Below are positions 11,387-47,821 of a DNA stretch of 64,000 nucleotides, piece after piece. Made by a program: the position numbers and the translations under genes. Numbering within the stretch: the stretch's first letter is position 1; the number at the start of each line of letters is the position of its first letter. This stretch comes from Thermoplasmata archaeon (GTDB taxonomy: Archaea > Thermoplasmatota > Thermoplasmata > Thermoplasmatales > GCA-001856825). The notes beneath the pieces were generated by a model. It searched no databases. It was not told the DNA's origin and saw only the letters and a program-made list of their open reading frames with translations. The DNA lies in NCBI GenBank assembly GCA_021787125.1, contig JAJYMI010000076.1, positions 264-64,263 on the forward strand, in the 5' to 3' direction.

Positions 11387-11944
11387 CTACCTAATCGAAG
11401 TGTGCCTTCTATTATAGAGCTCAAGTTTTGATTTCAAAATCTCTGATACGTCAGTCTCATTTTCTGCAGGGTACAACTTGTCATCTGGAATATTGGCGTA
11501 CCTAATCCTTGCATCTAGCCTCTTGCCAGCAAGATCAGAACTCCAGCCTTTCACACGGTAGCATATTACAAGTCTCTTTAGGGACCACGCAAAAGCCAGT
11601 TCAGACAGTGTTCCTGCTCCTCCACCCATCGCTACCACTGCATTTCCGTTTGCCACTATTAAATTTCTGAATTCATCCAGCCCAGACGCTATTACTATGT
11701 CTGCAACTCCTTCTGCGACCTTAGGATCAAATCCAGGAAGGATCGCAATGATGTCACCATCCGTGTAATTCGAGGATTTCCTCCCTCCCACCGAAAGGGC
11801 CCTAGGGAGAGACCCAATTCCTCCCGAGAGTATTCTGTACCCGTCGTCAATAAGCCTTCTCCCCAGCGAAACCGCAAGATTCCATTTTTCCGATCCCTCT
11901 GGGATGTTCCTGTCCCCTATAACGGAAATGATTGGCTTACTCAT
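11387..11944 (-). CDS. LOG / TIGR00725-type SLOG Rossmann-fold protein
   Basis: ISVIGDRN...LSGGIGSLPRA...AILPG...RNLIVANGNAVVAMGGGAGTLSELAFAW (GGGxGTxxE motif). Overlaps the end of the megaprotein gene by 8 nt. Confidence 0.75.
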   Translation of the reverse strand: MSKPIISVIGDRNIPEGSEKWNLAVSLGRRLIDDGYRILSGGIGSLPRALSVGGRKSSNYTDGDIIAILPGFDPKVAEGVADIVIASGLDEFRNLIVANGNAVVAMGGGAGTLSELAFAWSLKRLVICYRVKGWSSDLAGKRLDARIRYANIPDDKLYPAENETDVSEILKSKLELYNRRHTSIR

Positions 11945-14900
11945 TTTGATAATACCCCCTTTTCTCTAAAATCCCTCCTATAATTCTTTCATTTTCTTCT
12001 CTGCTTCTCTTCTTTTTGTCTGCAGATGGGTCGTAGAAATATATCAGTTGCTTTATCCACACAGGAGATTTCGCCATCTCCACTATCGGTATCATGAAGG
12101 CCCAGTCCTCAGCCTGCGGAATCCACTTGCCATCCAACTTAAAGTCTTCCTCGTCTATCTCATCAAACAGATATTTTCTGAATGTTCTCAGATGCTGCCA
12201 GACGTTTCCTCCCCTGTTCTTCCTCGGGTTGACAAAATTGACCTGGTAATAGGAATGCTTATCCGCCCTCAGCATTGAACCAACGGTCACATCCGCTCCC
12301 TCTCTGTATTTGGTTACCACAGTATCCACAACATCCCTTCCTATGAGTGCATCATCCGCATCGACCATAGCAATGATAGAATTGGGATTCTTGCATATTT
12401 TTCTGACCGCGAAATTTACGTTTTCCATGGGGGTCAATGCTTCAAGATTCCTCATGATAGTCATTCTCTCCCTGACTCCAGGGAAGACAAGATTCTCCAC
12501 GTACTCCAGCATGCCGTTCCTGGAGGATGCATCGATAAACACCATTCCGAACGATTGATTTCGCTGAGAGAACAGTGAATCAAAACATCTCCTCACTTTG
12601 GAGATGGGTACATCCCGCCCCCTGATTATGACGACCACCTCTTCGTTTCGTTCCCCTGACCAGTCCGCGACAGATCCGACAAGATCCACTCTGCCCTTCT
12701 GTGGTGGAAACACATTTCCTATCTCCAACGATTTCACGATGTTGAACCAGTCATTGAATTCGGACTTCCTTTCGTTTGGAATGTGAATGAAGAAGGTCGA
12801 TCCAATCGGAGCCCTGAGAGAGTGGAGGCCATCTTTCAAGATTGCCCTGTCAATGCTTCTGTGCCACGGGAAAACAAGTCTCCCCTCCTCGTCCACCTCA
12901 TTTTCCAGCGGCAGGAATTTCTCCAACCTATCGAGGGAAATCAGTGAATTCCTGACTTCGATCCTCCAATCCACTCTTTCATAGTAGCTTTCCCTTCTTT
13001 CTCCCGAACCCGCGACTGGAAATGAAACGGAGATAGCCCTCTCATCGTTTTCCAGAATGTCGATCATCTCTTGTAGGAAGTTGGATCGAGGTCCATCCCT
13101 CCATATAATTGAGTCTCCATCGCACTGCAGCACGTACTTCGTCCTGCAGTTCTGAAATCCATAGAGTGTGGTCAGGATGGGCTGACCGTTAGAGCTCCTC
13201 ACTTTGTCGCTCTCCAATCCGAACCATCGTCTGCTTATTCCCTTCCGAATGGTGGGATCATCGGGCAGGACAAGGTATCTATCCAGGGTCCCTTCCGCGA
13301 CAAGAGAATCAAGCGTCTGAATGAGATTCTCAAAATCCCCCTCATCGTATTGCCTGTTGAATCCTTCTTCCTCCATGTCGGTGACCGCTACCCTTTCCCT
13401 GAATGCTCTGGGAGAATCCAGTTGGTTCACCAGATGCCGTATCTGCATGTTGGCAGTTTTCCATTCCATTGCTGAAATTTTTATCAGGAGGGTCGCATTC
13501 TGGTTTACAACTTGCATCACTGGGCTCAAAACGAAGAGCATCAGGTCGCTCCCGGGTGAAAGATTGTTAAAATCCAAGGATGGCAATTCGTGAACTTCGT
13601 CAATGCTGAATCCTGCTTCCGTGAAGAGCTTTGAGTACCAGTCAAAGGGTCTGTGATAGTCCTCCCTTCTCTTGAAGGTGCTCTTCACGATCTTCTCGTA
13701 TCTGGTCAACTTGGAGTACTCTGGAAGTGGAGAAGCCACTAACGAGTGCTCGCTCTCCTCTTGCTCATTGCTGAAGGGATTACAGACTCCGATCAGCGCC
13801 CTACCTCCTTTTTTTACCAATCGTCTTATATTGGTCATTATCTTGTTTGCTTCAGCATCCTTTACCTCACACAGTACCTGGTTAGCCAGGACAAGGTCAA
13901 ACTTCCTTCTTCCCGCGGAGTTATCGTTTATCTGTGATTCTGACATGCTCTTGATTCTATTTTCTCCAGTATGCCTCTTGTTGAATTTCTCATAATCTAA
14001 GTCGTAAACCCAGACCCGTGCTTGCCCAGAAATCAGATCGGCCAGCCAACCGTTGCCAGTTCCGTAATCCAAGACCGTTTTCGGACCGAGGCCCCTGATA
14101 ATTTTTTCAATAAGTCCGTACAACCGATCGTGTAACGACCCTGCGTCCAACGATGACCTGAAATACTCAAACCCGTACAACTCCGGCATGTCGTATTCCT
14201 TCAGAGTCCTATGCGCTAGTTCCTTGAAATCGCTCCTGAAGTGCCACCTATAAGTTAGAAATGCTCTCCTGCACATGTTGTCGTAGTAACCGTCGGAAAA
14301 CCCAACGATGCTGGTTCCCAAGTCAACATACATCACCCGCGAGCCGCTGACGATGAGGTTATCAGGGGAAATGTTGGTGAGACAGATACCTGCTGCCCTG
14401 CACTCCTGCAGAAGTTCCATTATAGAACTGAGATATCCGCCATGGTACATTTCGCCCTCCACAAACGAGGAGACCAAGATTACTCTGCCTTCAGAGACGA
14501 CCACCTTTTCTATTCCAGCCAGATGCTTCAGTTGCAGATTGGAATTCGCAATCTTCCGAAGAAGTTCGAGCCTCCCGTGCTCAAAGTGCTGGGCTCCATG
14601 ATGAAAATACTTGTAGGATCTTGTACCGTCAGAAAGAACGATGCCTTCGCTTCCTTCTCCCAGCAGCCTGAGACGCCGTCGACCAAATTTCTTTTCGATG
14701 ACGTTCTTCGCATCTTCGATTTCTTCAGTGCTTGCGTGAACGGGCAATTTCTCACGATAGGAGACACAGTAGGATTCCAAGTTTTCTAGAAATTCTGTCA
14801 ATTCTTTTCTCGCATTCGCGAGTGATTCCATTTGTCCCGTCAAGTTGGGCGGTGAGAATTCATTCTCGATTTTTTGGAGGGTCTCTTCGACGGCACCGGA

Positions 14901-17087
14901 GTAGCTTCTTACGAGGTCACCTGCTGTACTCGGTGTTGTCTTCATTTCTTCCAGCGCCTTCCTGATCGAACCTACGAGTCCCCTTATCCTCCAGGAATTC
15001 ATCAGAAGCATGTTGAACCGAAACTTCACTCTGGCTTCAAAATCTGAAACCAGCTGGTCAATTTGCTCACTGGAAGAACTAAGGAGATCGTGGGCGGATG
15101 CACCGTCTCCCAGCCTCTCTCTCGTGCTCGTAAGGAATTGTTTCAGTGTTCGTACCAGCGAAGCACCGTAGATGTCGTCTATGGTGGTTCGGAGCGCAAG
15201 CTTAGAATCAACACCGTAACGCCTATCCTGGCGCAGAGACAGCGGAATCGACACCACCTTCTTCCTGCGAGTGAGAACATTTCTGCCCCCAACCTCCTGA
15301 TTCAGCAGGGCCCATACTGTATCTCCTCTTCTGAAGGTGGTTCTGTCGGTGACGGGAGCAATGTTCGGAAATGTCCTGAGACATTCAGGGTCAAATACCA
15401 GGGTGTTTCCACCTCTAACTGGAATGCCGCCTTCAGTCGTTTCTTGGTCTGATGACGGTACAACGGGTCTGAACAGGTTCACCCCCGAATTGATTAGAGG
15501 GAAGTTCTCAAGCATGTGTCTTAGCGTAGAGGCGCTTGTATCCTCGGTATCCGTCACGTACCAACTTGGAGCTTCCAGGTGGCCATAGTGGCGCAAGGTG
15601 AGATCGTAATAGTAGTCGGTGTACCTTTCTGAGATGACTCCGTTCTCTGCCTCTTTCTTCTGAGACTTGGGCGTACTGCTGGACGGATTTGTTAGGGCTT
15701 GAAGATTGAATAGAAAGTCCAGCAGCTGCGTTCGAACCATGCTCGCTGCGGGAAGGGGAGGATCCCCAGAAATCTTGCCAATTGCGATGGAGCAACCTTC
15801 TGACCTCAGCGACGAAAGGTAATCCATGAATTCTCCTTCGTCAAGTCTGGTGTTGTTCAGACCCAGATCGTCCAACCGGACGTCATCGTCAAGTATCCAT
15901 ATGACCGGATTCGTCAAATCAAAGGATTCCAGGTAGAGGTAGTGGTGCAGGACCGTTCTTCCAAAGGGAATTCCTTTGCGTCTGAAGCCCGCTTCATAGT
16001 ATTTCCCAAAATTCCCGTTTGCTGCATCTCTTTCGATCAATTCTTTTCCAACGATGCGGACCACGAATTTCTGAGAGACCGTATGAGCTATGGTATCCAG
16101 CCTCTGCGAATCGCCAGAATTGTCGCAGATCACAATTATTGCCTTACCTTTCGGAACTCTGAGGAACTGCCCAATATCTTTCAGGAGAAGTTCTGTGGAA
16201 TCGAGATTGGAGCACGTAAACCCGATCAGGAGATCAGAAGACGAATGGGCAGTCGATGAAGCCTTGCGCTGGTGCTGTTTCATCAACGGTCGTTCCTTGG
16301 TTTCCTTTACCAAGTCATTTTCAGAAAAGCCAAAGAGGTCTAGAGCTCTCTTCTTGAACTGAGCCCGCTCCTCAGCGTTCATCCTGGATGAATATTTTCT
16401 GAAGAACTCAATGAGTCCTTGCCTCTTTCGTTCCGATCCATAGCTTGAAATGCGGTCCTTTCCAGTGGAGTAGTGATGGACAAGGTGTTCATCGACGTAG
16501 CTGACCTTAAGGCCTTTGAGGTCAAAGAGTCTTATACAGACGTCCCTATCGGTTGTGCTTTCAAGATTCTCGTCAAAGGCTCCCGCCTCCAATATCGAAG
16601 ACAGCCTGACGAACAGATTTGAGCCTTGAACGTGAGGATTGGTAGAAAGGAATGAGGATGAGGAAAGATTGTGCGGAATTGCTTGTTTTCTTCCTATATC
16701 GTCTTCTATTTCATGCCTCACCATGCCTGAGACAACCAGATCGGAGTCGTTCAGGGTCGCAGAGTCAAAACATTTCTCAATATAACTCCCCTCCCAAGCA
16801 TCGTCATCGTCAAGAAAAGCCACATACGTTTCGTCTGGATCTACGTTTATAGAAACGAGATAGAAGAGCGCGGTGTTCAGTGCTCCAGACATGTTTGCAG
16901 TTCTTTGATTGACAAGAGTGACAAGTTCGGAATTGATATCGGTACTCAGTGAAGAAGTGTCTTCATTGTTTTCCCCTACCAAGATTACCTTATCTGGTCT
17001 CAGGGATTGAATGAAAATGGATTTCAGGGCTCTTGGAAGTGAGTCTGGTCTTCCCTTGGTTGGTGTGATTGCAAAGATTTCTGTCAT
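11937..17087 (-). CDS. 1716-aa multidomain enzyme: GT2 glycosyltransferase, second GT-A-like domain, protein-kinase-like domain, class I SAM methyltransferase, GT-A-like domain, C-terminal GT2
   Basis: - **N-terminal GT2:** FAITPTKGRPDSL...FLDDDDAW.
- **Second GT-A-like domain:** IVICDNSGD...WILDDDVRLDD.
- **Kinase-like domain:** LLGEGSEGIV...SYKYF...LTNISPDNLIV...YVDLGTS.
- **Methyltransferase:** VLDYGTGNGWLA...FDLVLANQVL.
- **GT-A-like domain:** VLQCDGDSII.
- **C-terminal GT2:** VVVIIRGRD...FIDASSRNG...MVDADDALIG. Confidence 0.8.
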   Translation of the reverse strand: MTEIFAITPTKGRPDSLPRALKSIFIQSLRPDKVILVGENNEDTSSLSTDINSELVTLVNQRTANMSGALNTALFYLVSINVDPDETYVAFLDDDDAWEGSYIEKCFDSATLNDSDLVVSGMVRHEIEDDIGRKQAIPHNLSSSSFLSTNPHVQGSNLFVRLSSILEAGAFDENLESTTDRDVCIRLFDLKGLKVSYVDEHLVHHYSTGKDRISSYGSERKRQGLIEFFRKYSSRMNAEERAQFKKRALDLFGFSENDLVKETKERPLMKQHQRKASSTAHSSSDLLIGFTCSNLDSTELLLKDIGQFLRVPKGKAIIVICDNSGDSQRLDTIAHTVSQKFVVRIVGKELIERDAANGNFGKYYEAGFRRKGIPFGRTVLHHYLYLESFDLTNPVIWILDDDVRLDDLGLNNTRLDEGEFMDYLSSLRSEGCSIAIGKISGDPPLPAASMVRTQLLDFLFNLQALTNPSSSTPKSQKKEAENGVISERYTDYYYDLTLRHYGHLEAPSWYVTDTEDTSASTLRHMLENFPLINSGVNLFRPVVPSSDQETTEGGIPVRGGNTLVFDPECLRTFPNIAPVTDRTTFRRGDTVWALLNQEVGGRNVLTRRKKVVSIPLSLRQDRRYGVDSKLALRTTIDDIYGASLVRTLKQFLTSTRERLGDGASAHDLLSSSSEQIDQLVSDFEARVKFRFNMLLMNSWRIRGLVGSIRKALEEMKTTPSTAGDLVRSYSGAVEETLQKIENEFSPPNLTGQMESLANARKELTEFLENLESYCVSYREKLPVHASTEEIEDAKNVIEKKFGRRRLRLLGEGSEGIVLSDGTRSYKYFHHGAQHFEHGRLELLRKIANSNLQLKHLAGIEKVVVSEGRVILVSSFVEGEMYHGGYLSSIMELLQECRAAGICLTNISPDNLIVSGSRVMYVDLGTSIVGFSDGYYDNMCRRAFLTYRWHFRSDFKELAHRTLKEYDMPELYGFEYFRSSLDAGSLHDRLYGLIEKIIRGLGPKTVLDYGTGNGWLADLISGQARVWVYDLDYEKFNKRHTGENRIKSMSESQINDNSAGRRKFDLVLANQVLCEVKDAEANKIMTNIRRLVKKGGRALIGVCNPFSNEQEESEHSLVASPLPEYSKLTRYEKIVKSTFKRREDYHRPFDWYSKLFTEAGFSIDEVHELPSLDFNNLSPGSDLMLFVLSPVMQVVNQNATLLIKISAMEWKTANMQIRHLVNQLDSPRAFRERVAVTDMEEEGFNRQYDEGDFENLIQTLDSLVAEGTLDRYLVLPDDPTIRKGISRRWFGLESDKVRSSNGQPILTTLYGFQNCRTKYVLQCDGDSIIWRDGPRSNFLQEMIDILENDERAISVSFPVAGSGERRESYYERVDWRIEVRNSLISLDRLEKFLPLENEVDEEGRLVFPWHRSIDRAILKDGLHSLRAPIGSTFFIHIPNERKSEFNDWFNIVKSLEIGNVFPPQKGRVDLVGSVADWSGERNEEVVVIIRGRDVPISKVRRCFDSLFSQRNQSFGMVFIDASSRNGMLEYVENLVFPGVRERMTIMRNLEALTPMENVNFAVRKICKNPNSIIAMVDADDALIGRDVVDTVVTKYREGADVTVGSMLRADKHSYYQVNFVNPRKNRGGNVWQHLRTFRKYLFDEIDEEDFKLDGKWIPQAEDWAFMIPIVEMAKSPVWIKQLIYFYDPSADKKKRSREENERIIGGILEKRGYYQNE

Positions 17088-17206
17088 CAGAACACCACGG
17101 TCATAATTGTTGCATAATTGAATTCCTCATTGTCGCCCCAACTGGCGCCCAAGCTTTCCTGGGATTCTCCACAATGAGTATTTGTCAGCCTCTTCTTCAG
17201 GCACAT
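17087..17206 (-). CDS. Small ORF, 39 aa (MCLKKRLTNTHCGESQESLGASWGDNEEFNYATIMTVVF)
   Basis: Own codon-by-codon translation. It fills the epimerase-megaprotein gap. Its TGA shares the A of the megaprotein ATG (17087). GAAGGGA lies upstream of ATG 17206. Confidence 0.3.
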   Translation of the reverse strand: MCLKKRLTNTHCGESQESLGASWGDNEEFNYATIMTVVF

Positions 17207-17225
17207 GCGAATCCCTTCAAGATGG

Positions 17226-18167
17226 CTACTCCATTGGGTTGGGCAGAGGAGAAATTTGCTGACTCGAAATCGCGTCTGAAATTACCCTGCTCACAATTTC
17301 CTCAACGCTGATTCTCGGAGACCAACCCAGCACCGAAACGATTTTCCTGTGATCGGAATACTGGTCAAAGGCCTGAGTGTTTGCTTCCCTGAACTCTATG
17401 GAGCCCTTCCCCACCTTCTTTACAACCAGATTGGCCAGATCGATGACGGAGATCGGTTTGTTGCCCAAGACAAAGACATCGTAAGTAGCGCTCATCGTAC
17501 GGAGATGGTTCAATCCCAGTGAAAATGCAGTCGCGACATCTATTGGATGTATGAACTCTCTTATGTGCTTTCCGTCTCCCAGAATTACAATGGGCTTGTC
17601 ATTGAGTGCAGCGCTCACGAATTCCCTCAGGACGTTCATCTCTTTCTGACCCTCTCCACTAACTAGCGGAGGCCGAAACATTACCGTTTTAATTCCGTAG
17701 ATATCGGAATAGAGCTTTGCTATTTCTTCGACGAACGCCTTAGAAGACCCGTACGGATTGTTTGGATGAAAGGGGGTTTCCTCGTTTATTGGGCAGGGGG
17801 CATGGCCATATGGAGAGAAGCTGCCCATACCCAGAACCCTGGCGATGTCAAGCCGTCTGCAGGCTTCATAAACATTGAGCGCCGCATTTACGTTTACCCT
17901 CAAGTAATCGTAGGTTTGCTTAACGCTTTCAGCGCCGCCCCCTTTTCCGTTCGACCCCGTGAGGGCAGCGAGATGCACAAGGACGTCTGGTTCGGAAAGT
18001 TCTAGGACACGTTTGAGATCTGGATAACGAGTTGCATCAGTCACGTAGTGATTCCGACCCTTACTGCCTACGATGTCCAGAGTTGCGGTGTCGTGCCCAT
18101 CGAGATTTAGCTGTCTGTGGATGTACCTGCCAATGAATCCCTCTCCCCCCGTGACTAGGACTTTCAC
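17226..18167 (-). CDS. NAD-dependent sugar-nucleotide epimerase/dehydratase (SDR family)
   Basis: KVLVTGGEGFIGRYI (GxxGxxG) and YGSSKAFVE (YxxxK). The GTG start forms a GTGA overlap with the NYN gene stop. Confidence 0.85.
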   Translation of the reverse strand: MKVLVTGGEGFIGRYIHRQLNLDGHDTATLDIVGSKGRNHYVTDATRYPDLKRVLELSEPDVLVHLAALTGSNGKGGGAESVKQTYDYLRVNVNAALNVYEACRRLDIARVLGMGSFSPYGHAPCPINEETPFHPNNPYGSSKAFVEEIAKLYSDIYGIKTVMFRPPLVSGEGQKEMNVLREFVSAALNDKPIVILGDGKHIREFIHPIDVATAFSLGLNHLRTMSATYDVFVLGNKPISVIDLANLVVKKVGKGSIEFREANTQAFDQYSDHRKIVSVLGWSPRISVEEIVSRVISDAISSQQISPLPNPME

Positions 18168-18766
18168 TTATTGTCACTCCCTCTTTTTAGACCCAGATCC
18201 TCAAGCCTTGGATAGAACAAGATATGCATGGATTGTCCAATCGTGACGAACAGGAATTTGAGGCAGATTGCAGGCAAAGATGATCTCGCAAGTTTCAAGT
18301 CATTCGTCAGCAAGATAGGTCTGGTACTAGAGGGCATGAGTCGACGTTTGATTTCTCGAATAAACATGTCTGCGGAGGTTCCGGCAGGTACCTGGTTTAT
18401 TTTCCCCTGGGAGATTAGATTCTCGTAGGCGATATTGTCGTCTATTGTATGCCTGAGGGTCGCATCAGCTATGCAAATATAGGGAACATTGATCCCGTCG
18501 AATTCCAACAGAACTGTTATGATTCTAGAGATCTGTGGTTTTCCGGGGCCTGCCCAGGCAACATTACTTGCATCTATCACCACAAAGCTATCTATTCGGG
18601 GACCGCTTGCAATATCATCACTGCCAGAACTTTGCTTAGAGATTTCTGTTTCACCATTCCTTCTTAGAGGCAGGCTCATATCATCTTCGATTCCTCTCCC
18701 GTTTAGAGAAAAATCGGAATCCGCAGATTCAGCCATAGAAAACACTCTCCTCTTTTTTGAGTACAA
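18164..18766 (-). CDS. NYN (Zc3h12a-like) ribonuclease-domain protein
   Basis: FVVIDASNVAWAG...ICIADATLRHTIDD...PAGTSADMFI resembles the VIDGSNVA...D pattern of NYN/PIN-like RNases. Confidence 0.6.
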   Translation of the reverse strand: MYSKKRRVFSMAESADSDFSLNGRGIEDDMSLPLRRNGETEISKQSSGSDDIASGPRIDSFVVIDASNVAWAGPGKPQISRIITVLLEFDGINVPYICIADATLRHTIDDNIAYENLISQGKINQVPAGTSADMFIREIKRRLMPSSTRPILLTNDLKLARSSLPAICLKFLFVTIGQSMHILFYPRLEDLGLKRGSDNK

Positions 18767-19031
18767 GCATGAAGCTTAGCGAGCTTGCATCAGCAAGAGA
18801 CCGAGAACGAATTCTCAGCTGAACCCATCCATACTGGAGTAGGTTCATAATGGTGTAAATTTAATTTTGTATTTAAGCTTTGCAATCTCCAACTTTGAAA
18901 GTCACTATCGGGACCGTGCATGTCACTCTAACGACCGGACTAAATCTATCGCTTTCCTTCTGTTTTCATATCAATCACATTTCAAATTTTCACGTGACTA
19001 TTTCAATACTGGCCAAGGCAGTGAGAAATGA

Positions 19032-19061
19032 ATAAAATGAAAAAAGTGAAAAAATGAATTC
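19032..19061. repeat. Direct repeat, right copy (ATAAAATGAAAAAAGTGAAAAAATGAATTC)
   Basis: See 11326-11354. This copy also carries a local duplication of GTGARAAATGAAT (19021-19033 and 19046-19059). Confidence 0.55.
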
Positions 19062-19070
19062 TAACTGGTT

Positions 19071-19553
19071 CTAGGTACTTATTCCTCTGTGATAGCTTAT
19101 CAATTTTCCTTCTCCATCAAATATGAATGTCTTAGATGTGTAGAACCAGGGAAATAAGTGACCATGAGTTATTTTCACCGTGAACTTCACTGCGTTTATT
19201 TTGTCAACCATATGCTCTTTCCCAATGAATCCCCTCACGTTGACTTGTCCATTGTGGCCAATGAAAGGTACCGTGTTACTATCCGAGCCACTTGTATCGG
19301 TTCCGTCGATTCTCCATTTGATGTCCCTAGCGGTTCCAGGTCCTGCATTCATGATCTCTAAGTCCAAGTATTCACTCCCTCCTGAGAAGAACTTCGGCCC
19401 AAGCGTGTTGTCAGGATAAGAATATGCAAGATCCAAAGCCTTCGTTACAAGAACTGGAAAGACTGCCGATAAATTCGCGATTAGCACATTCATCAGGGTA
19501 AGAAACAGTCCAAGAACCGTTAAGGCTAACCCAATATACTCTATCCAATACAT
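19071..19553 (-). CDS. Hypothetical membrane-anchored protein, 160 aa
   Basis: ORF track. N-terminal hydrophobic helices: IEYIGLALTVLGLFLTLMNVLIANLSAVFPVLV. Confidence 0.5.
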   Translation of the reverse strand: MYWIEYIGLALTVLGLFLTLMNVLIANLSAVFPVLVTKALDLAYSYPDNTLGPKFFSGGSEYLDLEIMNAGPGTARDIKWRIDGTDTSGSDSNTVPFIGHNGQVNVRGFIGKEHMVDKINAVKFTVKITHGHLFPWFYTSKTFIFDGEGKLISYHRGIST

Positions 19554-19869
19554 ATTATGTTAAGGTTCTTCAAAGATTATTATTTTGCACTCATCCAAAT
19601 CTCTGGCAAAAATCACACTTCCAATTGATACCTTTGTCAGTACTACCCTTTGTCGTAGGCATGTAATTACCAGTCGTCATATTGGGACTCCGGAAATCAT
19701 CTAGCATCCCTTTGTCGTGCATGAACAAGGTTATCGGGCAAGAAGGCAATAAAGTAATTGGGGCATCCTCAATTTAGAATGTGACGGGGTAAATTATGGA
19801 ATGAACCAGAACTTAACATTCAGGGTATATTTTCCGATAGCTCTTTTATAGGAATGTTACTTATTGGTG

Positions 19870-19906
19870 CCGGAGGCTTCTTGGCCCCTTAAACTAAGAC
19901 CTCCGG
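19870..19906. repeat. Hairpin element copy B
   Basis: CCGGAGG (19870-19876) pairs with CCTCCGG (19900-19906). Core TCTTGGCCCCT at 19879-19889. Confidence 0.5.
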
Positions 19907-20113
19907 TTAAATAATGTAAAAGTGGTAAAAACAAGACTTTAAATTGATTCTATCTCCACTATCAGGTTCCTCTCCTTTTTGCGAGCAATTTTGGAGATGA
20001 CAGAGTCAAATTTGTCTTCTATCTTGTTCATCATTTAGCCACAGGAAGAATTTTCAGATACGTACTAAAGAATCACAAGGGATTTAATGGCCGCAAAGCA
20101 GGTTTAGCAAACT

Positions 20114-21349
20114 CTACTTTGTAGAATTTTCCCCTCCTAAGCCTTTAAGTTCTCTAACCTGTACTTCTATCTCTGCTGGGGATTCAATCTGCTTTCCATT
20201 GCCCGGTCCCAGTTCTCCGAACTTCCTCGCACTCACTAGTACTCTGCCCTCGTACGAACCTATCAAAGCATTGTAGCCCTTCGCCACTTTCTCAATGTTA
20301 TCACCCAATTTAGATATGTCTTCACTTATCTTTTTCAGTCTCTCGTAGAGCTCTTTGCCGGCTTCGAGTATCACCTTTGCATTTTCTTCAACTTTCCTTT
20401 CACTCCATCCTCGGGCAATTGCTTTCATGAGAGAGAGAAGAATTGTTGGAGTTGCGATTATAATGTTTGCTTCCATCGCTTTATTTACAAGTTCCTTATC
20501 TTCCTGAAGCGCTGCATAGAGGAATGATTCTCCAGGTATATACATCACAACAAGCTCTAGTGACTCTTTGTACATCGCATTGAAGCCCTTCCAGTATTCC
20601 CTCTTGGAAAGGTCAACTGCGTAGTCCTTAATCTTTTTAGCATGGTCCTTCATCAACTTCTCCGTCTCCTCCGGTGTTTTCGCTTCAAGTGCAGAAAGAT
20701 AACTTGATGTTGGGGCTTTTGAATCTACGATTATGACTCTATTGGAAGGAAGGTTGACAACCATGTCTGGTCTTCTCTCTCTTCCATCGACCGTTATACT
20801 GACCTGACTATCAAAATCGCAATATTCTGTCATACCAGAGAGCTCTGCTATCCTCTTCAGCGTGGTCTCTCCCCAGTTTCCTTTCGCCTGAGGATTCCTG
20901 ATCGCATTTGACAGTTGGTTAGCCGAATCTCTGAGATTTTTCTCATTTTCAACAAGAGCTTTGACCCGTTCATCCAAACTAGCATAGGATGTCAGCCGAG
21001 CGGCTTCGATTGTGCTCAATGCAGTTCCAACGCTCTGGAGATAGTTGTTAAGAGACTCTACTGTGCCTTCTATTCCCGTTTTAGCTTCATCAATTTTAGT
21101 GGTGGCTGCAGTGACTATGGGACCTATCTGATCCTTCGCTAATTGGACTGTTTCCTCTCTGTTAGTTTTCACAGATTCAGTTGCTGCAGTTTTGACGGCG
21201 TTCTTGATTGATTCCAAGTCTATTACCGGTGGGGGAGTTGAAAGTACTTGTTTGCCTCTCCAAAGTATCAGTCCAATAATTACTCCGCCAAGAATTCCAA
21301 TTACAAGTCCTATAGTTAATGAAATCGCATCCATTCTTTCATCAACCAA
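20114..21349 (-). CDS. rmuC: DNA recombination protein RmuC family
   Basis: N-terminal TM helix, long coiled coil, then RRPDMVVNLPSNRVIIVDSKAPTSSYLSAL, which matches the RmuC RPD...LP...IDSK nuclease-like core. Confidence 0.8.
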   Translation of the reverse strand: MVDERMDAISLTIGLVIGILGGVIIGLILWRGKQVLSTPPPVIDLESIKNAVKTAATESVKTNREETVQLAKDQIGPIVTAATTKIDEAKTGIEGTVESLNNYLQSVGTALSTIEAARLTSYASLDERVKALVENEKNLRDSANQLSNAIRNPQAKGNWGETTLKRIAELSGMTEYCDFDSQVSITVDGRERRPDMVVNLPSNRVIIVDSKAPTSSYLSALEAKTPEETEKLMKDHAKKIKDYAVDLSKREYWKGFNAMYKESLELVVMYIPGESFLYAALQEDKELVNKAMEANIIIATPTILLSLMKAIARGWSERKVEENAKVILEAGKELYERLKKISEDISKLGDNIEKVAKGYNALIGSYEGRVLVSARKFGELGPGNGKQIESPAEIEVQVRELKGLGGENSTK

Positions 21350-21467
21350 GGATTCTATGATTAGTATTTAAGACTAGGGCTGAGAAAACGTAATTTCTAA
21401 GTTGTGCAGTAGATCTGTTTTCTCAATAATGGTTTATCCAATCGTCTTTACCAATCTATAAGCAAAT

Positions 21468-21974
21468 GTGTCTCTGGATATTCTTCTTGCTCTCAAGTAT
21501 TCCTCCAAAAAAGAAGAGATGTTCACACTCGCTAATAAGCGTCTCAGTGAATTCAATGAGGAAAAATTCAACAGGCACATTAAAAAAGACGGAAATACAG
21601 CCGAGATACTCAAGTTAACGAAGCAGGCATACAATGATTTCGCCGAGTATTACGACCAGGGAGTCATTATTGCACCAACGTATAAAGAAGAGTATGAACT
21701 TGCAAAGAAAGCGATGCAGTTGGACTCGATGTACAACACTCTAATAAGTAGGCTTGAACTTTTTGCACAGCATGAAAGTGCTCATGAAAGCATAGAAAGC
21801 ACAAAAATAGTAATTTTCCTTACACTCCTGGTCGGAGCACTTGGTCTTATTGAGTTAGGCGCCACGCTCTTTTCTTCCAACAAAATTGGAGCCCTTATTT
21901 TTTACCTTTTTATTTTGGTCGCATTTGCAATTTTTGTTATTTCATCAATTGTGTGGAAAGTCAGAGTGAAATAA
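21468..21974 (+). CDS. Hypothetical protein with two C-terminal TM helices
   Basis: ORF track. C-terminal hydrophobic segments IVIFLTLLVGALGLI and ALIFYLFILVAFAIFVISSIVW. Confidence 0.45.
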   Translation: MSLDILLALKYSSKKEEMFTLANKRLSEFNEEKFNRHIKKDGNTAEILKLTKQAYNDFAEYYDQGVIIAPTYKEEYELAKKAMQLDSMYNTLISRLELFAQHESAHESIESTKIVIFLTLLVGALGLIELGATLFSSNKIGALIFYLFILVAFAIFVISSIVWKVRVK

Positions 21975-22312
21975 TAGTGTCCTTGGGGTGAGACTGAAAA
22001 TTTAAAAGGGAGATTTCCTCCTTATTTTGACCTGTTATAGTGAACTACCCAACAGTTACGTCTATCCAACGGCAGAATCTAGGCCATTTTACGAAATCTT
22101 GAGAACCATGTTAGTATTGTTAGTTAGGTGCTTGACTATAGTTGTCAGACCTATACTGGCCTATTCCGGTTAGGCAACGGTACCGTAATAGGTAAAGACA
22201 GGAACTAATAGTAAGAAGTAGCTCGAAGTGAAAACGTTTTTATCTCTAAGTAAACTTGCATTTTGTGGTAGTGTCTTCTGTGGCAGAAATTCAAGTGGAA
22301 GAGGTGTAGCTT

Positions 22313-25300
22313 ATGCATGACAAAAGAAAGAGATCGGCAGCTTCTAGACGAATGGAAGCTGAGACTAAACACGAAATACAGAATAAACAACTAGCCAAAC
22401 TATTGGATAATCTCGAAACATTATACAAGAACGTGAAACTGGGTAATACAACTCTAACAATGCAAGAGGAATCGTCTTATGTTATGGATTACCTCAAGGC
22501 ACTTGTGCTGTCAAAACCGGAGTCCGCTGCTTCTGAAAAGCTATTAAAGCCCATTATGCAGGTGGCAGGGATAGAAAACTTTCCTGAGGGAAGAGTGGGA
22601 GGAGGGTGGGTGGATTTCATTTTACCATCATCAAGGGAGATAGGCCCCCCTGTAGCTTTGGAGCTTAAACCTCTGCACGGAAGCGACGGGAAGCTGAATC
22701 CTCTTTCAAAGGAGTTCGATCAATTGGTTGACCAGGTCACTAACACAAGGACCAACCAGATCATAAGGTATATCCTAGGAGGAAACGGGAACAGGGGAGT
22801 AGATTTTGTCGTGTTCACAAATCTCAAAGAAGTCTACATTTTTGACAAAGGTTGCATAACGAAGTTCGAACCTGCCAGGAAGGAGACTTTTAAAGAATTC
22901 ATTGAAGCCATTTCAGTTACAAAGAACATCTCTGACTACCTGCGAAGGGTCACTGAAGAACTGGAGAAGAGGGACTTGGATAGGTATTTCTTCAACGATC
23001 TTAAGAAATGGTTCGGTTATCTTCAGGAACTGGACTGGAATAGCGATCCACAAGTCAACAGCGTGCTTCTCCTGAACAAGCTGATCTTCGCTCTGACTCT
23101 TGAAGATTTTATGATTATAGACTATAGGGAAACATGGGATATGTTCTCTAGGAATTTTAATAAATGGAGTGCCAAGGGACCCAAGGCAGTGCTGAAGAAT
23201 TTCTTCAAGGAATTGGACGAGTTCCTTTACGAGTATTACGACACCGAACTATTTGTTCCATCAAACAGCATACTTTCGAAATTCAAGGAGTCCAACGAGA
23301 GCTACGCGAAACTTCTCAAAACTCTAAGGTCCGTTGCAGGTTTTGTGGATGAACCCACCTTATTTTCGGGTGGATTGTATTCCTATAATTTCAGGTTGAT
23401 AAACGAGGACGTATTTGGGAAATCATATGAAACCTTTCTGGCGGAGAACAGGAAGGAGTCCGGGATATACTATACCCCCAATCAGATCACAGGAAGGATG
23501 GCATCAGACCTAGTGCAACACCTTTTTGGCAAAATAAGAGATAAGTTGGTTCAAGATTTGAGCATCGAAGAGTACGACGAAGCGTTAATACTGGCAGATC
23601 AGCTGGTGAAAATAACAATATTTGACCCCGCATGCGGATCGGGAGCCTTTCTAATAAGCGTTCTCAGGGAAATCGTGAAGGTTTATTCGGACATTAAACC
23701 AAAAACAGAATGGATCAATCAGCTAGGTCTAAAGGAGATATCCGAACCTGAAAGGGTGAGAATAGATAAGGTGAGACAGTTAAGGGAGACCCTTGGCTTT
23801 AACGGACAAATGAAAGGAATAGACAGAATACTTCTTTCAAAGATAATCCTCCGGCACATCTACGGATGTGACCTTGACAATACTGCATTAAATGTTGCTA
23901 AGGTTAATCTTTGGAAAGAGACTGTGAAGCTGAATCCAGAGTCATTCTATTTTCAGAGTCTCCCACAATCCATAAATCATATACTGCCTGCCCTAAAGGT
24001 AAACTTTGTTTGTGGAAACTCTATAGTTGGCTTATCAGATGAGTATGTAGTAAAGTACCTTACTGACAACTTCAGAGAAGATATCAAATCAATGCTTGAT
24101 TTAAGGAAAGAATACCTCAAAGATCCTTCAAACGCAGACATAGCTGAGAAAATCGAAGAAATAAAAGAACCCATCAGGTCCTCACTTTCGGTAGAATTTG
24201 GTAAAATATATCCAGAGCTGGAAAGCCCTCTATTCTATCCGCTAGAATTCTTTTTCATATACTTTAGTGAAAATGGCATACCCGTTGAAGAGAACTCTCG
24301 GAAGTTTTCGGCTTTAATAGGCAACCCCCCTTGGAACGATGTTAAACCGATTAAAAAAGAATTTGCGCAGAAACACCCTAGTATATTTGGGGAAGGGCTA
24401 ACAAAATTTTCAATCTCAGGCAAGGAATTCGAGAAAACGTTTGATAGAAAGTTGATGAATGCGGAAACAAAAGAGTTATGGAAAAAATACAGGGATGAGA
24501 TCCATGCTCTTTCTGATTTTATTAGAAAGAATTACGGTTTGCAATATAAAGGGGATACATCCCTTCAAAAGACATTTCTGGAAAAATTTATTAGATTATC
24601 TAGGGACGCTTTTGCAATACTGATCCCTTCCAATTTTCATACCGACGAGGGTGCGTCTGATCTTAGGAAGGAAATATTCGATAAATGGCAACTGAATTAT
24701 CTGATTTCCTTTGAAAACAAACATAAAGTCTGGTTTAATATGGAATCGCGGTTCAAATTCGACATGTTATTTGTGACGAGCCATAAGACTGGAGAATCCT
24801 TCAAGGCGAAATTCTACGTACATAACTGGAAAGAAACGGAGAGGTTACTCGACTACCCTATAGAGCTTATTCTAAAACTATCGCCTCAAATGCTTGGAGT
24901 TATGGAATTTCGGTCGGAGGAAGACGTAGAAATTATAAGAAAAATTAGAGCAGATCACCAATCTGCTTTTGATTATGGATTTAGATTTTCAAGAGAATTT
25001 GGTTATCCGGGAGACAATGATCTCCTAGAAGATCAGCCCTCACACGGTGATATTCCTGCCTTTGAAGGAAAGACGATTCACCAATATGATTCAAATTACT
25101 CAGATAATAGGTATTGGATAAATGAAATGAATGGAAGAGAACGACTCAAGAATTCCTTTATCCAGTCCGTGACAAAGTACTTTAATGATAAGCCAAAAGT
25201 GGCCCAAATGTTAGAGAAGGGGGAACTGTTGATGGATTATGAGACGGATAGGCTTGTGTTACGAAGGCAGGCAAGAACGACAGATGAACGAACGTTAATC

Positions 25301-29679: not shown

Positions 29680-30540
29680 TCACACCCCCTTCATACCAAT
29701 GACCTCATTTACTGGGCCTCTCTTTGTTCCCACACAGTTTATGAATCTTGGAACTTTTACAATTCTCAACGAAAATCCTAACTTTTTGTACAATTTCAAT
29801 ATCCTATCAGTAGCCTGATTTGTGATCACTGTCGGAACTGAGAGTTCAGCCGTCCATCGTGCCACTCTTTCTTGGTCTTGCCACGTAAAACCATCAGCAG
29901 AATATTGACGGAATTCCACGTCGTATGGAGGGTCGACATATATGAAGTCATCTTGACGTATTTTGAGGGTGGAAAAGTCCCCAGAAGAGAATTTCCAGTT
30001 CTTCAGTAATTGTGTATAATCGCTGAAATCAGTTGCGTAATTAATGGTCTTGTACCTTCCAAAAGGTACATTGAAGAGACCTGAAGAGTTGAATCTACAC
30101 AAACCGTTGTAACCAGTATGATTGAGATAATAGAATAGTTGGGCCGCCTCTTTCGATTTCCATTTTCCTTCCTTGACGAGGTCGTTAAACCTCTGTCGGT
30201 TTTTGTAATAACTTTCCTTGCTGTTTTCCATAGTGATGTCTACTCCTAGTTCAGACCTCACTTGGTTATAGAAATTTATCAAGTGAGGGTTCACATCATT
30301 AAGAAGAGCCTTGTTAGGTCTTAGCCCAAATGTTACTGCGAGTCCACCACAAAGAGGCTCAACAAGCCTAGATTTAGAGTGTTTTTGCCACAGAGGCTCG
30401 AGATGAGGAACCAACCATCGTTTTCCACCAGCCCACTTCAGTAGCGGTCTAATCTTAACCTCTTCTTTCGATTTATCAGTAGGAGTGTCACCAGAAAAGT
30501 TCAACTTAGTCTGGGATAAGCTATGGGAATAGTCTTCCAC
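29680..30540 (-). CDS. Dam-type (D12 class) N6-adenine DNA methyltransferase
   Basis: LLKWAGGKRWLVPHL and FIYVDPPYD motifs. Confidence 0.85.
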   Translation of the reverse strand: MEDYSHSLSQTKLNFSGDTPTDKSKEEVKIRPLLKWAGGKRWLVPHLEPLWQKHSKSRLVEPLCGGLAVTFGLRPNKALLNDVNPHLINFYNQVRSELGVDITMENSKESYYKNRQRFNDLVKEGKWKSKEAAQLFYYLNHTGYNGLCRFNSSGLFNVPFGRYKTINYATDFSDYTQLLKNWKFSSGDFSTLKIRQDDFIYVDPPYDVEFRQYSADGFTWQDQERVARWTAELSVPTVITNQATDRILKLYKKLGFSLRIVKVPRFINCVGTKRGPVNEVIGMKGV

Positions 30541-30593
30541 TATCTAATATATGGGCAGAAATATTAAAGGTTACTTTTGGGTGTACTCTTTTA

Positions 30594-32390
30594 TTATCCT
30601 TGATAGTTTTTCCAAGCGTCGTTTATGCTCTTCTTAAGTCCTTTCTCGTATCTTCTTATTCCTTTGTCGAAATTTGTCATTGACTCTTTCTTCATAAAAT
30701 AAGCCCGTACATCCTGTTCATTTTTAGACGCCGACTTACTCACTTCAAGTGCCCGATGGATGTTTCCTGTAATTTCCACCTGTAATTTCTCGGAGCCTAA
30801 GAACTTGATCCATAACTTCAAGTCTAACGCGCCAGCTTTTGTCTTGCACTCGTCTAATGCCTCGTACAAGTAAGCACTCACGAAATGCTGAGAGTACCGA
30901 AGTAACTCTTTGTACCTCACCGATTTCTTTCCAATTTTATTAACAACGTTGTAAGACCTCCAGGTCGTTATGTAGTCGATAACTGGATGGTCCTTGCTAA
31001 TCTCCTGTTTAATTTTCTCTTCAGGAAACGCATCTTCATACCTGTCGGGTTCTGAAAATACTTCTTCAACATTCCCTCTCACTCCCTCGTGGGGAAGATG
31101 GTGTTTACAGACAAGATACAACAGGCCTAGACGTTTCATCAGGACATTCGATTGCGAGGCCTTAGCGCCTTCGGTTCTTTTCCTGTAATATGTCCAATTG
31201 AACAGGTTAAATAGTTCTTCCAACCTTACTTGACGAGGGTCCGTAGAGCGGAGGTCCGAAGGTAGTATATTGTTCTGTGTATTGAGAGCGGCTATAATGT
31301 CTATGCTGTTTGAGTAGGTTCTGTTATTTTCGTAAGGCAATCGATATGCCCTAATCAGTATTTGGGCACCTTTTCCAGCATTTCGATTCCTGTAATAGGC
31401 CTGATAAAGGGCCCTCAAGGTTTGGCCCCCGTTCACGACCTGAGGATTCCTTAACACTAACCTTTGCAATTCCTCGTCGATGGTAACCTGATCTGCGAAA
31501 ATCATCATTCCATTATGCTTATACCAAAACCAAGAGGGGGATTCCGTGAAGGACTTCTGTATTCCCTTGTTTATTCTGTTTGCTCCTAGAAATTCTCGAA
31601 CGTTCTTTTGAAGGTATGCCTGCACATCTCTTTCTTCGTCAAACCACTTAAGGATTTCGTGGATGTTTGCTGTGCAGACAGTTGCATCTATGTCGCCCTC
31701 TGTGTATCTTAGAAATCTATTTCCCACAATCTGTATTTCCTTTCTGCCAGTGTAGGGGATAAACCCATGATTCACATCGTAAATGACACTATCTAGTTGA
31801 CTGCTATCAACAGGGGAAAACGCGGTGTTTAGCTTCCATCTCTTTTCTGTGAAGAATTTTCTGATCCTTTTTTCTACTGAACCACTGTCGGTTTTCTTGA
31901 TGCGGTCAGTAGTTAACCAAATGACTTCCAAGTTCGCGTTTAAGTCGTCATTCTGCTCCCGCAACTGATGAACGAACTCATCTGCCTTCCTATTGGGGTT
32001 ATCATTGGAAACCGAGTTGAGTATCTTCCTTATGTCCTCCCACAGGTTTCCTTCTGCCGCGGCCTTTTGCTTTCCTACAAACTTTGTCTGAATAATGTAA
32101 AAAGTGTTGTCTTCCTTATAGTAAAAATCTATTCCTCCATCATCTTTACCATCGACATATTGCTCTTTGAAGTCTTCATCACTCACCTTGAATCTAGCCT
32201 TGGTAAAGTATCTGGTCAGTTCTCTAGTGGCTTCTTTATCACTCAAAGTCCTAAGATAATTTGTCAGCTCACCCGAATTGTTAATCTGTCGGTCCTCCAT
32301 CTTTAATTCCCTCCCATGTAAAATATCTAGTATTTCAAAAATCTTTCTAGCTTGGGATGATTCTTCCCAAGGAAATCTACGGATCATCAA
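30594..32390 (-). CDS. AIPR-family abortive-infection protein
   Basis: N-terminal DGGIDFYY...FYIIQTKF nuclease-like core and central VVNGGQTL motif. Located next to an RM pair, as is typical for AIPR. Confidence 0.7.
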   Translation of the reverse strand: MMIRRFPWEESSQARKIFEILDILHGRELKMEDRQINNSGELTNYLRTLSDKEATRELTRYFTKARFKVSDEDFKEQYVDGKDDGGIDFYYKEDNTFYIIQTKFVGKQKAAAEGNLWEDIRKILNSVSNDNPNRKADEFVHQLREQNDDLNANLEVIWLTTDRIKKTDSGSVEKRIRKFFTEKRWKLNTAFSPVDSSQLDSVIYDVNHGFIPYTGRKEIQIVGNRFLRYTEGDIDATVCTANIHEILKWFDEERDVQAYLQKNVREFLGANRINKGIQKSFTESPSWFWYKHNGMMIFADQVTIDEELQRLVLRNPQVVNGGQTLRALYQAYYRNRNAGKGAQILIRAYRLPYENNRTYSNSIDIIAALNTQNNILPSDLRSTDPRQVRLEELFNLFNWTYYRKRTEGAKASQSNVLMKRLGLLYLVCKHHLPHEGVRGNVEEVFSEPDRYEDAFPEEKIKQEISKDHPVIDYITTWRSYNVVNKIGKKSVRYKELLRYSQHFVSAYLYEALDECKTKAGALDLKLWIKFLGSEKLQVEITGNIHRALEVSKSASKNEQDVRAYFMKKESMTNFDKGIRRYEKGLKKSINDAWKNYQG

Positions 32391-36752: not shown

Positions 36753-36753
36753 T

Positions 36754-37119
36754 TCAGATCACCTTCAGCCGAAAGAGGACGGAAGCTACAGAAACCAGAA
36801 CAAGGGAAACTGAGGTCCAGAATACTACATGAGAAGTTTTGTCCATTAGCAGACGTTCTTTGACTTTTTTGGGCCTCTCGTCGCCCAAGTAATAAATCAA
36901 GGTCTCGCAGTCCTTCTCTATCTCCTTAAGAGTTTTGTTCAAGACCAGATCCTGTGCAAGTTGAATCTCGATTCCCAGGAGCTTTGCTATCTCCCCTATC
37001 CAAATATCCCTGTTGTCCCGGATTCTCTTGTATTCATCAGCGTGAGCCTTCAGGGTAGTCTCACGCTGCCTCTCTATCGATAACTCGTCGTTTTCCTGAA
37101 AAATGTCAGTGGAATTCAC
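36754..37119 (-). CDS. Hypothetical 121-aa tail-anchored membrane protein
   Basis: C-terminal TM VVFWTSVSLVLVSVASVLF. ATGA overlap with the upstream gene. Confidence 0.5.
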   Translation of the reverse strand: MNSTDIFQENDELSIERQRETTLKAHADEYKRIRDNRDIWIGEIAKLLGIEIQLAQDLVLNKTLKEIEKDCETLIYYLGDERPKKVKERLLMDKTSHVVFWTSVSLVLVSVASVLFRLKVI

Positions 37120-39906: not shown

Positions 39907-40045
39907 GCCGCTTTTTGCCGGAGGGCTAACTTTTAGTGTAGCCTGGGCTACGTTATTATACCCGTATGGGTCCCGTCTTCTATGTCCCGCATTGCCGATT
40001 GGAATGTGCCTGTTCTTTCCATTTCTGTCCTTCTTTGTAATGAAT

Positions 40046-47816: not shown

Positions 47817-47821
47817 TCCCC

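Follow-up and report, generated by a model that had tools for sequence, protein, structure and literature searches.

The window, by which we mean the whole stretch of 64,000 nucleotides (nt) of the Thermoplasmata archaeon contig JAJYMI010000076.1 that was analysed, carries on its minus strand a single open reading frame (ORF) of 1716 codons, running from ATG to TAA. The encoded protein, hereafter the giant, combines four modules of the glycosyltransferase (GT) fold type GT-A, a protein-kinase-like domain and a class I S-adenosylmethionine (SAM)-dependent methyltransferase. The gene lies in a short series of genes on the same strand: downstream, the start of a LOG-family gene overlaps the stop region of the giant gene by 8 nt and, 138 nt upstream, there is a gene for a short-chain dehydrogenase/reductase (SDR) of the sugar epimerase type. 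The coordinates are collected in Table 1.

Module architecture of the giant protein

A protein identical to the giant is already on record (P0001), from a Candidatus Thermoplasmatota metagenome-assembled genome (MAG), under the label 'glycosyltransferase'. The search for relatives listed 120 proteins, most of them spanning the whole length, and the giant can be aligned over its entire length with more than 100 full-length homologues, which have 1667-1763 aa and 36-54% identity to it. Because full-length homologues align in this way, the gene is neither split nor chimeric. A frame split by sequencing errors, a risk named by an earlier sequence-only reading of this DNA, was ruled out on the identical record and these homologues, as were a chimera and a fusion artefact.

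That reading had quoted nine motifs and derived from them an order of six modules. All nine are found, in the order claimed: DDDD (starting at residue 93), ILDDDVRLDD (398), LGEGSEGIV (809), SYKYF (824), LTNISPDNL (903), VDLG (921), VLDYGTGNG (1005), CDGDS (1322) and VDADD (1575). The key residues of each are invariant in all 107 sequences of alignment A1, built from full-length homologues, from which the conservation counts given here are taken; the motifs are not due to chance. The parse into six modules was upheld when Pfam, family profiles and AlphaFold2 models searched with Foldseek were used, and the kinase-like domain and the additional GT-A domains are both supported. No transmembrane segment is found in the giant (the maximum 19-residue Kyte-Doolittle mean is 1.36), nor was an amphipathic or transmembrane anchor found or a DNA-binding domain detected.

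The outer two GT modules are recognised by Pfam. Against PF00535, module 1 scores 64 bits (aa 7-137) and module 6 scores 28 bits, with a cut-off of 23.3. When the family profile was compared with PDB sequences, the module 1 region matched AvpGT (9jma, E=7.8e-11) and also TarP and GalT1. Residues D93-96, D180, R181 and D182 of module 1, and D1576, D1578 and D1579 of module 6, are invariant, and hhalign relates the two modules with a probability of 95.7%. By their Pfam matches and Asp-x-Asp (DxD) motifs, modules 1 and 6 are predicted GT2-family glycosyltransferases.

Modules 2 and 5 have no sequence-profile match to any GT family. Module 2 matches nothing in Pfam and NCBIfam; module 5 reaches the Pfam GT2 model at E=0.19 only, which is not significant, and its profile matches no PDB sequence at E<=10. 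Comparison of module 2 with module 1 by hhalign gives a weak E=0.0017, and local hhalign comparisons of modules 2 and 5 with modules 1 and 6 (E=0.002-0.1, probability <=15%) are likewise weak and were not used as evidence. Their assignment comes from structure prediction. AlphaFold2 models computed from the family alignment have a predicted local distance difference test score (pLDDT) of 88.0 for module 2 and 90.1 for module 5, with a predicted template-modelling score (pTM) of 0.89 for both. Searched against the PDB with Foldseek, both return GT-A glycosyltransferases only, with probability 1.0 and best E-values of 1e-5 (module 2) and 3e-7 (module 5). The matches of module 2 include K4CP, AvpGT, CmsA/Ktr4, XXYLT1, hyaluronan synthase, GpgS and mannosylglycerate synthase, its lower TM-scores being due to a helical insertion; those of module 5 include BcsA (cellulose synthase), K4CP, hyaluronan synthases, WrtF, TarP and GalNAc-transferases. 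In the models, modules 2 and 5 both show the Rossmann-like GT-A fold, and their fourth strand is followed by an Asp-x-Asp. The four GT-A-like modules claimed beforehand are therefore upheld, two by Pfam and two by AlphaFold2 and Foldseek.

The methyltransferase claimed from the motif VLDYGTGNG also stands. The region aa 1001-1110 scores 45 bits against Pfam Methyltransf_23 (cut-off 27), and the Methyltransf_11, _12, _25 and _31 models exceed their own cut-offs. With the family profile, the best PDB match is 3g5l (E=2e-11), and UbiG and TehB are also found. D1007 and G1013 of motif I are invariant, and G1009 and G1011 are conserved in at least 90% of the homologues. The linker between module 2 and the kinase-like domain is the least conserved part of the giant (column conservation 0.26-0.39). 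Its matches to DLP_helical (Pfam, E=0.013) and JetA (PADLOC, E=0.005) are weak and sub-threshold; it is short, contains 4 Pro and 8 Gly and is broken by them.

The kinase-like domain

The kinase-like segment alone matches nothing in Pfam and NCBIfam. When the profile of alignment A1 was compared with all PDB sequences, protein kinases were found for positions 812-937 (CDKL5, E=2.8e-5), and a profile of the isolated segment (A2) finds CDKL5 (4bgq) at E=5.7e-7, followed by Snf1, CDKs, CaMKII, Aurora and MELK. Designed PPR proteins, which top the A2 search at E=1e-11, were discarded as a repeat artefact, ten weak matches being summed on one 30-residue stretch. The A2 profile was then aligned with the sequences of CDK2 and PKA. 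N905 falls opposite the Asp of the HRD motif (D127 of CDK2); with respect to CDK2, the Gly-rich loop corresponds to G11-G16, K826 to the beta3 lysine K33, N910 to N132 and D922 to D145. On these profile matches and on its motifs (GxGxEG loop at 812-815, Lys826, Asn905, Asn910 and D922-x-G924), we place the domain in the protein-kinase-like superfamily.

G812, E814, K826, N905, D922 and G924 are each present in 107/107 full-length homologues, and N910 in 106/107. The position of the catalytic HRD Asp is thus occupied by Asn throughout the family (its codon in the window is 14373-14375), and the HRD His and Arg are absent. With a mean column conservation of 0.54-0.67, the domain is among the best-conserved stretches of the giant. 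Since Asn905 is invariant and Lys826, Asn910 and Asp922 are also kept, the site is a maintained, atypical one, and the change from Asp to Asn is a fixed feature of a strongly constrained site and not a sign of erosion.

An Asn at the HRD Asp position had been read from LTNISPDNL alone, and the alignment with CDK2 confirms it. It had been taken to point to either a pseudokinase scaffold or an atypical small-molecule kinase; the domain may be either, and the invariance of Asn905 favours a maintained function. Likewise, the proposal of one chain performing glycosyl-, phospho- and methyl-transfer keeps its first and last parts, as the GT and methyltransferase modules are supported, whereas phosphotransfer is unproven and, with the catalytic base missing, looks doubtful.

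The kinase-like profile retrieves 470 representatives (E<=1e-3) among 1.84 billion. Most of the 150 best of these 470 have a length of about 1700 or about 1200 aa and carry the kinase-like domain near residue 800; the remaining matches among the 150 look like kinase-first (K-first) halves or fragments. Judging from these matches, the domain is private to the giant-enzyme family.

Distribution, partner genes and genomic surroundings

The architecture had been called rare. This does not hold: in a scan of one genome per species, relatives are present in at least 353 species genomes, and chains joining GT2, kinase and methyltransferase domains had already been described (PMC11231755). Archaeal carriers belong to Bathyarchaeia, Methanomicrobiales, Nitrososphaerales, Thermoplasmata and Poseidoniales. 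Bacterial carriers include many Dehalococcoidia, Planctomycetota, Alpha- and Gammaproteobacteria and Verrucomicrobiota, together with Clostridia, Bacillales, Myxococcota and Latescibacterota; Methanofollis ethanolicus and Pseudotabrizicola sediminis are cultured carriers. A shorter form of 1135-1340 aa stops after the methyltransferase (module 1, module 2, linker, kinase-like domain and methyltransferase, plus SLOG), and some archaeal forms have an N-terminal UDP-Glc/GDP-Man dehydrogenase fusion. A viral origin was rejected, as only 5 full-length copies occur among 2.9 million IMG/VR contigs. No curated family for the full giant was found in Pfam and NCBIfam, and literature searches found no paper on the family.

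Table 1. Genes of the window discussed in the text and modules of the giant protein
Feature	Position	Strand	Remarks
Dpd-like set with DpdJ/BrxH-like DEAD helicase, 1347 aa	3311-10170	+	PADLOC DpdJ E=1e-40
LOG-family partner (SLOG cluster4 / TIGR00725), 185 aa	11387..11944	-	Pfam PF18306 E=4.6e-20
Giant gene	11937..17087	-	single open frame, 1716 codons
Module 6, predicted GT2-family GT-A, aa 1480-1716	11940..12650	-	DADD1576-1579
Module 5, predicted GT-A fold, aa 1190-1445	12753..13520	-	D1323-x-D1325 invariant
Class I SAM-dependent methyltransferase, aa 986-1185	13533..14132	-	motif I VLDYGTGNG
Kinase-like domain, aa 801-985	14133..14687	-	family profile against solved kinases
Linker, aa 641-800	14688..15167	-	presumed helical
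Module 2, predicted divergent GT-A fold with helical insertion, aa 281-640	15168..16247	-	D400, D402 invariant
Module 1, predicted GT2-family GT-A, aa 1-265	16293..17087	-	DDDD93-96, TTDRD at 178-182
SDR, NAD-dependent sugar epimerase/dehydratase, 313 aa	17226..18167	-	Pfam Epimerase E=9e-44
200-aa protein, first gene of the apparent operon	18164..18766	-	weak NYN/Zc3h12a RNase-like likeness
RmuC	20114-21349	-	adjoins Eco57I/MmeI-type restriction-modification-like gene
Eco57I/MmeI-type (type IIG) restriction-modification-like protein, 1142 aa	22313-25741	+	

For the census of neighbouring genes, the flanking ORFs of 86 loci were clustered; the range on either side of the giant gene was 6 kb for most of these loci and reached 10 kb for seven. 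The sole widely recurrent neighbour is a LOG-family protein of about 190 aa (SLOG cluster4 / TIGR00725), present in 46/86 loci when the ORFs were searched with the family profile. For 29 of the 32 copies of the first clustering, its gene is on the strand of the giant gene and at most 400 nt downstream of it. Its GGxGGxM and GGGxGTxxE motifs and its RN pair are kept, and G41, G42, G108-G111, T112, E115, R93 and N94 are conserved in 28-32 of the 32 partners; by its Pfam match and motifs, the partner is assigned to LOG / SLOG cluster4. In L067 (6001-11409) and L090 (8001-13400), from a Bacillales MAG and an IMG/VR contig, the giant itself carries a SLOG domain as a C-terminal fusion. Use of SLOG cluster4 as a marker specific for the system was ruled out, close relatives being solitary among housekeeping genes. 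Because the family also occurs alone in such contexts, the LOG-like protein is a recruited general enzyme and not a specific marker.

Other partners are found in fewer loci. Homologues of the SDR epimerase are near the giant in 14/86 loci, the window included, a UDP-Glc/GDP-Man dehydrogenase of about 300 aa in 17/86 and a GMC oxidoreductase in 5/86. The second of these resembles UDP-glucose dehydrogenase (UGDH) and is truncated, its N-terminal and central Pfam domains being matched and the C-terminal one not. A histidine phosphatase (His_Phos_1, E=1.8e-15) occurs in 14 loci: it is separate in Methanomicrobia, and in about 11 loci, of Planctomycetota and others, the giant ends in a fused copy of it, as in the ORFs of about 1955-1990 aa of L027, L029, L039, L060, L065 and L068. 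A CE4 polysaccharide deacetylase occurs in about 13 loci, where it forms one chain either with the LOG-like protein (in Proteobacteria) or with the giant. The expected substrates of these partners are nucleotides, phosphorylated small molecules and sugar nucleotides. No exporter, transporter, flippase or further GT gene family recurs in the 86 loci (6-10 kb).

The first gene of the apparent operon in the window, for a 200-aa protein, overlaps the start of the epimerase gene by 4 nt and looks co-transcribed with the cassette. Its Pfam match to RNase_Zc3h12a (E=0.001) is under the cut-off, and no homologue was found beside other family members; its membership of the cassette is uncertain.

As to the wider surroundings, genes were labelled with Pfam at ten homologue loci, and at least eight of these have defence or mobile-element genes within 10 kb of the giant gene, a qualitative association. 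The kinds of gene involved are restriction-modification, toxin-antitoxin, AbiEii, TIR, Cas1/Cas4-like, Dpd-like, ubiquitin-like, integrase, resolvase and transposase genes; at one locus (L005) the surroundings are housekeeping genes. In the window, the giant gene sits between a Dpd-like cluster and the genes for RmuC and a type IIG restriction-modification-like protein, and the G+C fraction of the cassette is 0.45-0.50, against about 0.40 in the flanks. We read the cassette as an accessory unit that moves horizontally and resides in defence and variable islands. In PADLOC-DB 2.0 the giant matches the mad2 methyltransferase (E=7e-8), the kinase loop of PD-T4-6 (E=0.002) and JetA (E=0.005), all by generic domain likeness. 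That database holds no system-specific model for it, and the partner genes have no match there.

Besides the DpdJ-like helicase, the Dpd-like set comprises a 380-aa DpdA-like protein carrying DUF6884 (PADLOC DpdA, E=6e-12), a 148-aa PLD-like protein and a 394-aa protein without matches. No QueC/D/E genes were found among the window ORFs scanned. The set may be an archaeal 7-deazaguanine DNA-modification or restriction module. A functional link with the giant was considered and set aside: by phmmer over all loci, no more than 2 independent loci of about 85 have a Dpd-like neighbour, and the proximity is treated as island co-location.

Further along the window, at 29680-32390 (-), the gene of a D12-class N6-adenine DNA methyltransferase (286 aa) adjoins that of an AIPR abortive-infection-type protein (598 aa). 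The regions 32628-49306 (-) and 61381-63924 (-) are filled with co-directional, often overlapping ORFs of up to 934 and 898 aa, and the G+C fraction rises from about 0.43 near 33 kb up to about 0.50 at 36-48 kb. These ORFs have no Pfam match, and one PHROG match, of unknown function (ORF 38063-38806). The block is possibly an integrated archaeal virus or element. Beside a Thermoplasmata homologue of the giant, at 17110-22983 of locus L115, adjoining genes encode a TIR protein with ThiF (E1-like), Prok-E2_E and Multi_ubiq; they constitute a ubiquitin-like conjugation cluster of defence type in an archaeon.

Proposed function and comparison with known enzymes

We propose that the giant is a soluble enzyme of a mobile cassette, that the product of this cassette is a methylated glycoconjugate and that the acceptor on which it is built is probably phosphorylated or derived from a nucleotide; we consider the chances of this proposal to be even. 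The four GT-A modules, each with an invariant Asp-x-Asp site for metal and nucleotide sugar, would add sugars from nucleotide sugars in the cytoplasm. At least one sugar would probably be oxidised or epimerised by the adjoining SDR epimerase, whose place in other species the truncated UDP-sugar dehydrogenase or the GMC oxidoreductase may fill, and the class I methyltransferase would methylate the product. Taking into account that the Gly-rich loop, Lys826, Asn910 and Asp922 are kept, with Asn905 at the position of the base, the kinase fold most likely binds ATP or a nucleotide-bearing acceptor. It could be a module for holding or regulation, or it could transfer phosphate to an acceptor for which a general base is not required. 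The LOG-family protein, translationally coupled to the giant, would act in the same pathway, and so would the histidine phosphatase and the CE4 deacetylase in other lineages. From the partner genes we infer a phosphorylated or nucleotide-derived small acceptor and not a lipid-linked surface polymer. That the product is a methylated hetero-oligosaccharide or glycoside, and the kinase fold a nucleotide-binding module with a non-canonical role, is the view we favour, at about equal weight for and against.

Several observations count against this proposal. No product, substrate or activity is known for any family member. What the data show are the domain identities, the conserved residues, the partner genes with their fusions and the distribution; that every module is active, what the acceptor is and what the kinase fold does are inferences. 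The acceptor in particular is deduced solely from partner genes, each of which occurs in a minority or about half of the loci. The LOG partner is missing from many Dehalococcoidia copies, and its relatives also stand alone among housekeeping genes, as said above. The likeness of the GT-A modules to AvpGT is generic, as TarP, GalT1 and K4CP score nearly equally. In the kinase-like domain, the position of the alphaC Glu is variable, and the intact nucleotide pocket is itself a prediction from conserved residues.

A rather unlikely alternative makes the cassette central to an anti-virus defence or chemical-warfare system that has escaped recognition: the LOG-like enzyme would free a base or ribose phosphate from a nucleotide, and the GT modules, methyltransferase and kinase fold of the giant would turn this into a nucleoside-like compound, glycosylated and methylated, which would poison the replication of viruses or serve as a signal. 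The defence and mobile-element genes at homologue loci speak for it, as do the position of the window gene among Dpd-like, restriction-modification and RmuC genes, the distinct base composition of the cassette and the five copies on IMG/VR contigs. In the biosynthesis of blasticidin and mildiomycin, the first steps involve the CMP hydrolases BlsM/MilB, UDP-GlcA and cytosylglucuronic acid synthase, to which a LOG-like hydrolase, a UGDH-like protein and a GT run parallel; and module 1 is nearest to the nucleoside glucosyltransferase AvpGT. However, PADLOC provides nothing beyond generic domain likeness, the association with defence genes is a qualitative one, and location in islands may merely reflect the horizontal transfer of an accessory gene. 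Moreover, the gene of L005 lies among housekeeping genes, and no effector or sensor is evident. A more specific form of our proposal, which we regard as unlikely, sees in the sugar-nucleotide modifier, the giant and the LOG-like protein a mobile, self-contained factory for a glycosylated, methylated small molecule derived from a nucleoside or nucleotide, made for virus defence or signalling, in which the kinase fold would hold or activate the nucleotide-bearing acceptor through its invariant Asn during its decoration by the four glycosyltransferases and the methyltransferase.

Quite unlikely, in our judgement, is a polymerase-terminator of surface polysaccharide of the WbbB / WbdD / Klebsiella O7 ORF6 type, in which, at the same low probability, the GT modules would polymerise a repeat on a lipid-linked primer, the linker would be a length ruler, the pair of kinase-like and methyltransferase domains would cap the chain with methyl phosphate and an ABC transporter would export it. 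The types of module are those of K. pneumoniae O7 ORF6, WbbB and WbdD (PMC11231755), the kinase-like and methyltransferase domains are adjacent, a presumably helical spacer separates the first GT pair from them, and dual-GT polymerases such as K4CP are among the top fold matches. But the catalytic Asp is Asn in every full-length homologue, while Asp441 is essential in the O7 enzyme, and the 60 best PDB matches of each of the two profiles do not include WbdD. No Wzm/Wzt-like, flippase or other glycan-cluster family recurs in the 86 loci; an anchor is lacking, and the linker, a short stretch of low conservation, has breaks at Pro and Gly. The family is also common in archaea, with a LOG-like enzyme and a histidine phosphatase as partners.

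It is improbable that the kinase-like domain is an inert spacer, that is, a dead pseudokinase in a chain of four glycosyltransferases and a methyltransferase. The lack of a catalytic base (N905), of the HRD His and Arg, of a conserved alphaC Glu and of a Pfam kinase match would fit a spacer. The invariance of the kinase-site residues and the high conservation of the domain argue instead for a maintained ligand or catalytic site. Finally, a role of the giant in nucleic-acid hypermodification, e.g., glycosylation and methylation of 7-deazaguanine bases from the adjoining Dpd-like system, is very improbable: the genes for a DpdA-like protein (TGT with DUF6884), a DpdJ-like helicase and a PLD-like protein lie 1.2-8 kb from the giant gene, and a Dehalococcoidia homologue adjoins TGT with DUF6884, QueC, UvrD and PD-(D/E)XK genes, but such a neighbour is found in just 2 independent loci, the Dpd-like genes of the window are on the opposite strand and the giant has no detected DNA-binding domain.

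To our knowledge, multi-module glycan-assembly proteins have been known only from a few bacterial O-antigen systems. The family of the giant is a distinct architecture, conserved over its whole length in no fewer than 353 species of archaea and bacteria, for which no curated family, solved relative or paper was found. It offers a natural test case for the role of a kinase fold with its catalytic Asp permanently replaced by Asn and the rest of the site frozen, and the three-gene cassette is open to heterologous expression in search of a glycoconjugate, possibly nucleotide-derived. The LOG/TIGR00725 (SLOG cluster4) proteins, uncharacterised so far, gain a candidate function. If the association with defence islands were functional, glycoside chemistry would be added to prokaryotic immunity.

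On our best reading, the closest known kind of protein is the glycan-assembly protein of the WbbB / Klebsiella O7 ORF6 type. The giant resembles O7 ORF6, WbbB (Raoultella/Klebsiella O12) and WbdD-WbdA (E. coli O9a) in joining several GTs, a kinase-type domain, a SAM methyltransferase and a helical spacer; those proteins are, like the giant, soluble or peripheral and use nucleotide sugars. In K. pneumoniae O7 ORF6 the order is methyltransferase, kinase, carbohydrate-binding module, coiled coil and two GT2 domains, the glycan is capped with methyl phosphate, and the kinase is AmiN/APH-like with an essential Asp441 (PMC11231755). In the giant the order is GT, GT, linker, kinase-like domain, methyltransferase, GT, GT, and the kinase-like domain is of the eukaryotic protein kinase type with Asn. 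Furthermore, its genes are not accompanied by an exporter or a glycan cluster; its partners are LOG-like, histidine phosphatase and CE4 proteins, and it is widespread in archaea. Four features speak against counting the giant among the O7 ORF6 type: Asn stands at the essential catalytic position, the modules follow another order, Pro and Gly break up a short spacer, and neither export machinery nor a glycan cluster recurs within the 6-10 kb clustered.

AvpGT, NucGT and ScaGT, which are specific for nucleosides (PMC11959488), share with the giant the soluble GT2 type; AvpGT, which acts on the 3'-OH of nucleosides, is the best solved sequence match of module 1 and also ranks high in the fold searches with modules 2 and 5. 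They are single-domain enzymes of 300 aa from Streptomyces antibiotic clusters, and their likeness to module 1 is at the general GT2 level. In K4CP, the K4 chondroitin polymerase of E. coli, and in class II hyaluronan synthase, GT-A modules follow each other in a single soluble chain, and every one of them has a DxD site. Among the fold matches of modules 2 and 5, K4CP ranks first or nearly first, at an identity of only 10-14%; the giant differs in having four GT-A modules, split by the kinase-like and methyltransferase domains.

The pseudokinases HER3 and JAK JH2 have Asn at the HRD Asp position and still bind ATP. Like them, the domain of the giant keeps the Gly-rich loop, the beta3 Lys, the catalytic-loop Asn and the DFG Asp, with Asn in place of the catalytic base. 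In contrast to them, it is prokaryotic and minimal (about 185 aa), has no activation segment, APE motif or conserved alphaC Glu, carries an invariant Glu in the Gly-rich loop and lies inside a carbohydrate-active enzyme. As for the partner, its PF18306 match and shared motifs link it to the LOG / TIGR00725 proteins, which resemble cytokinin riboside 5'-monophosphate phosphoribohydrolases; what distinguishes this cluster4 partner from that family at large is that in about half of the loci it stands beside the giant or is fused with it.

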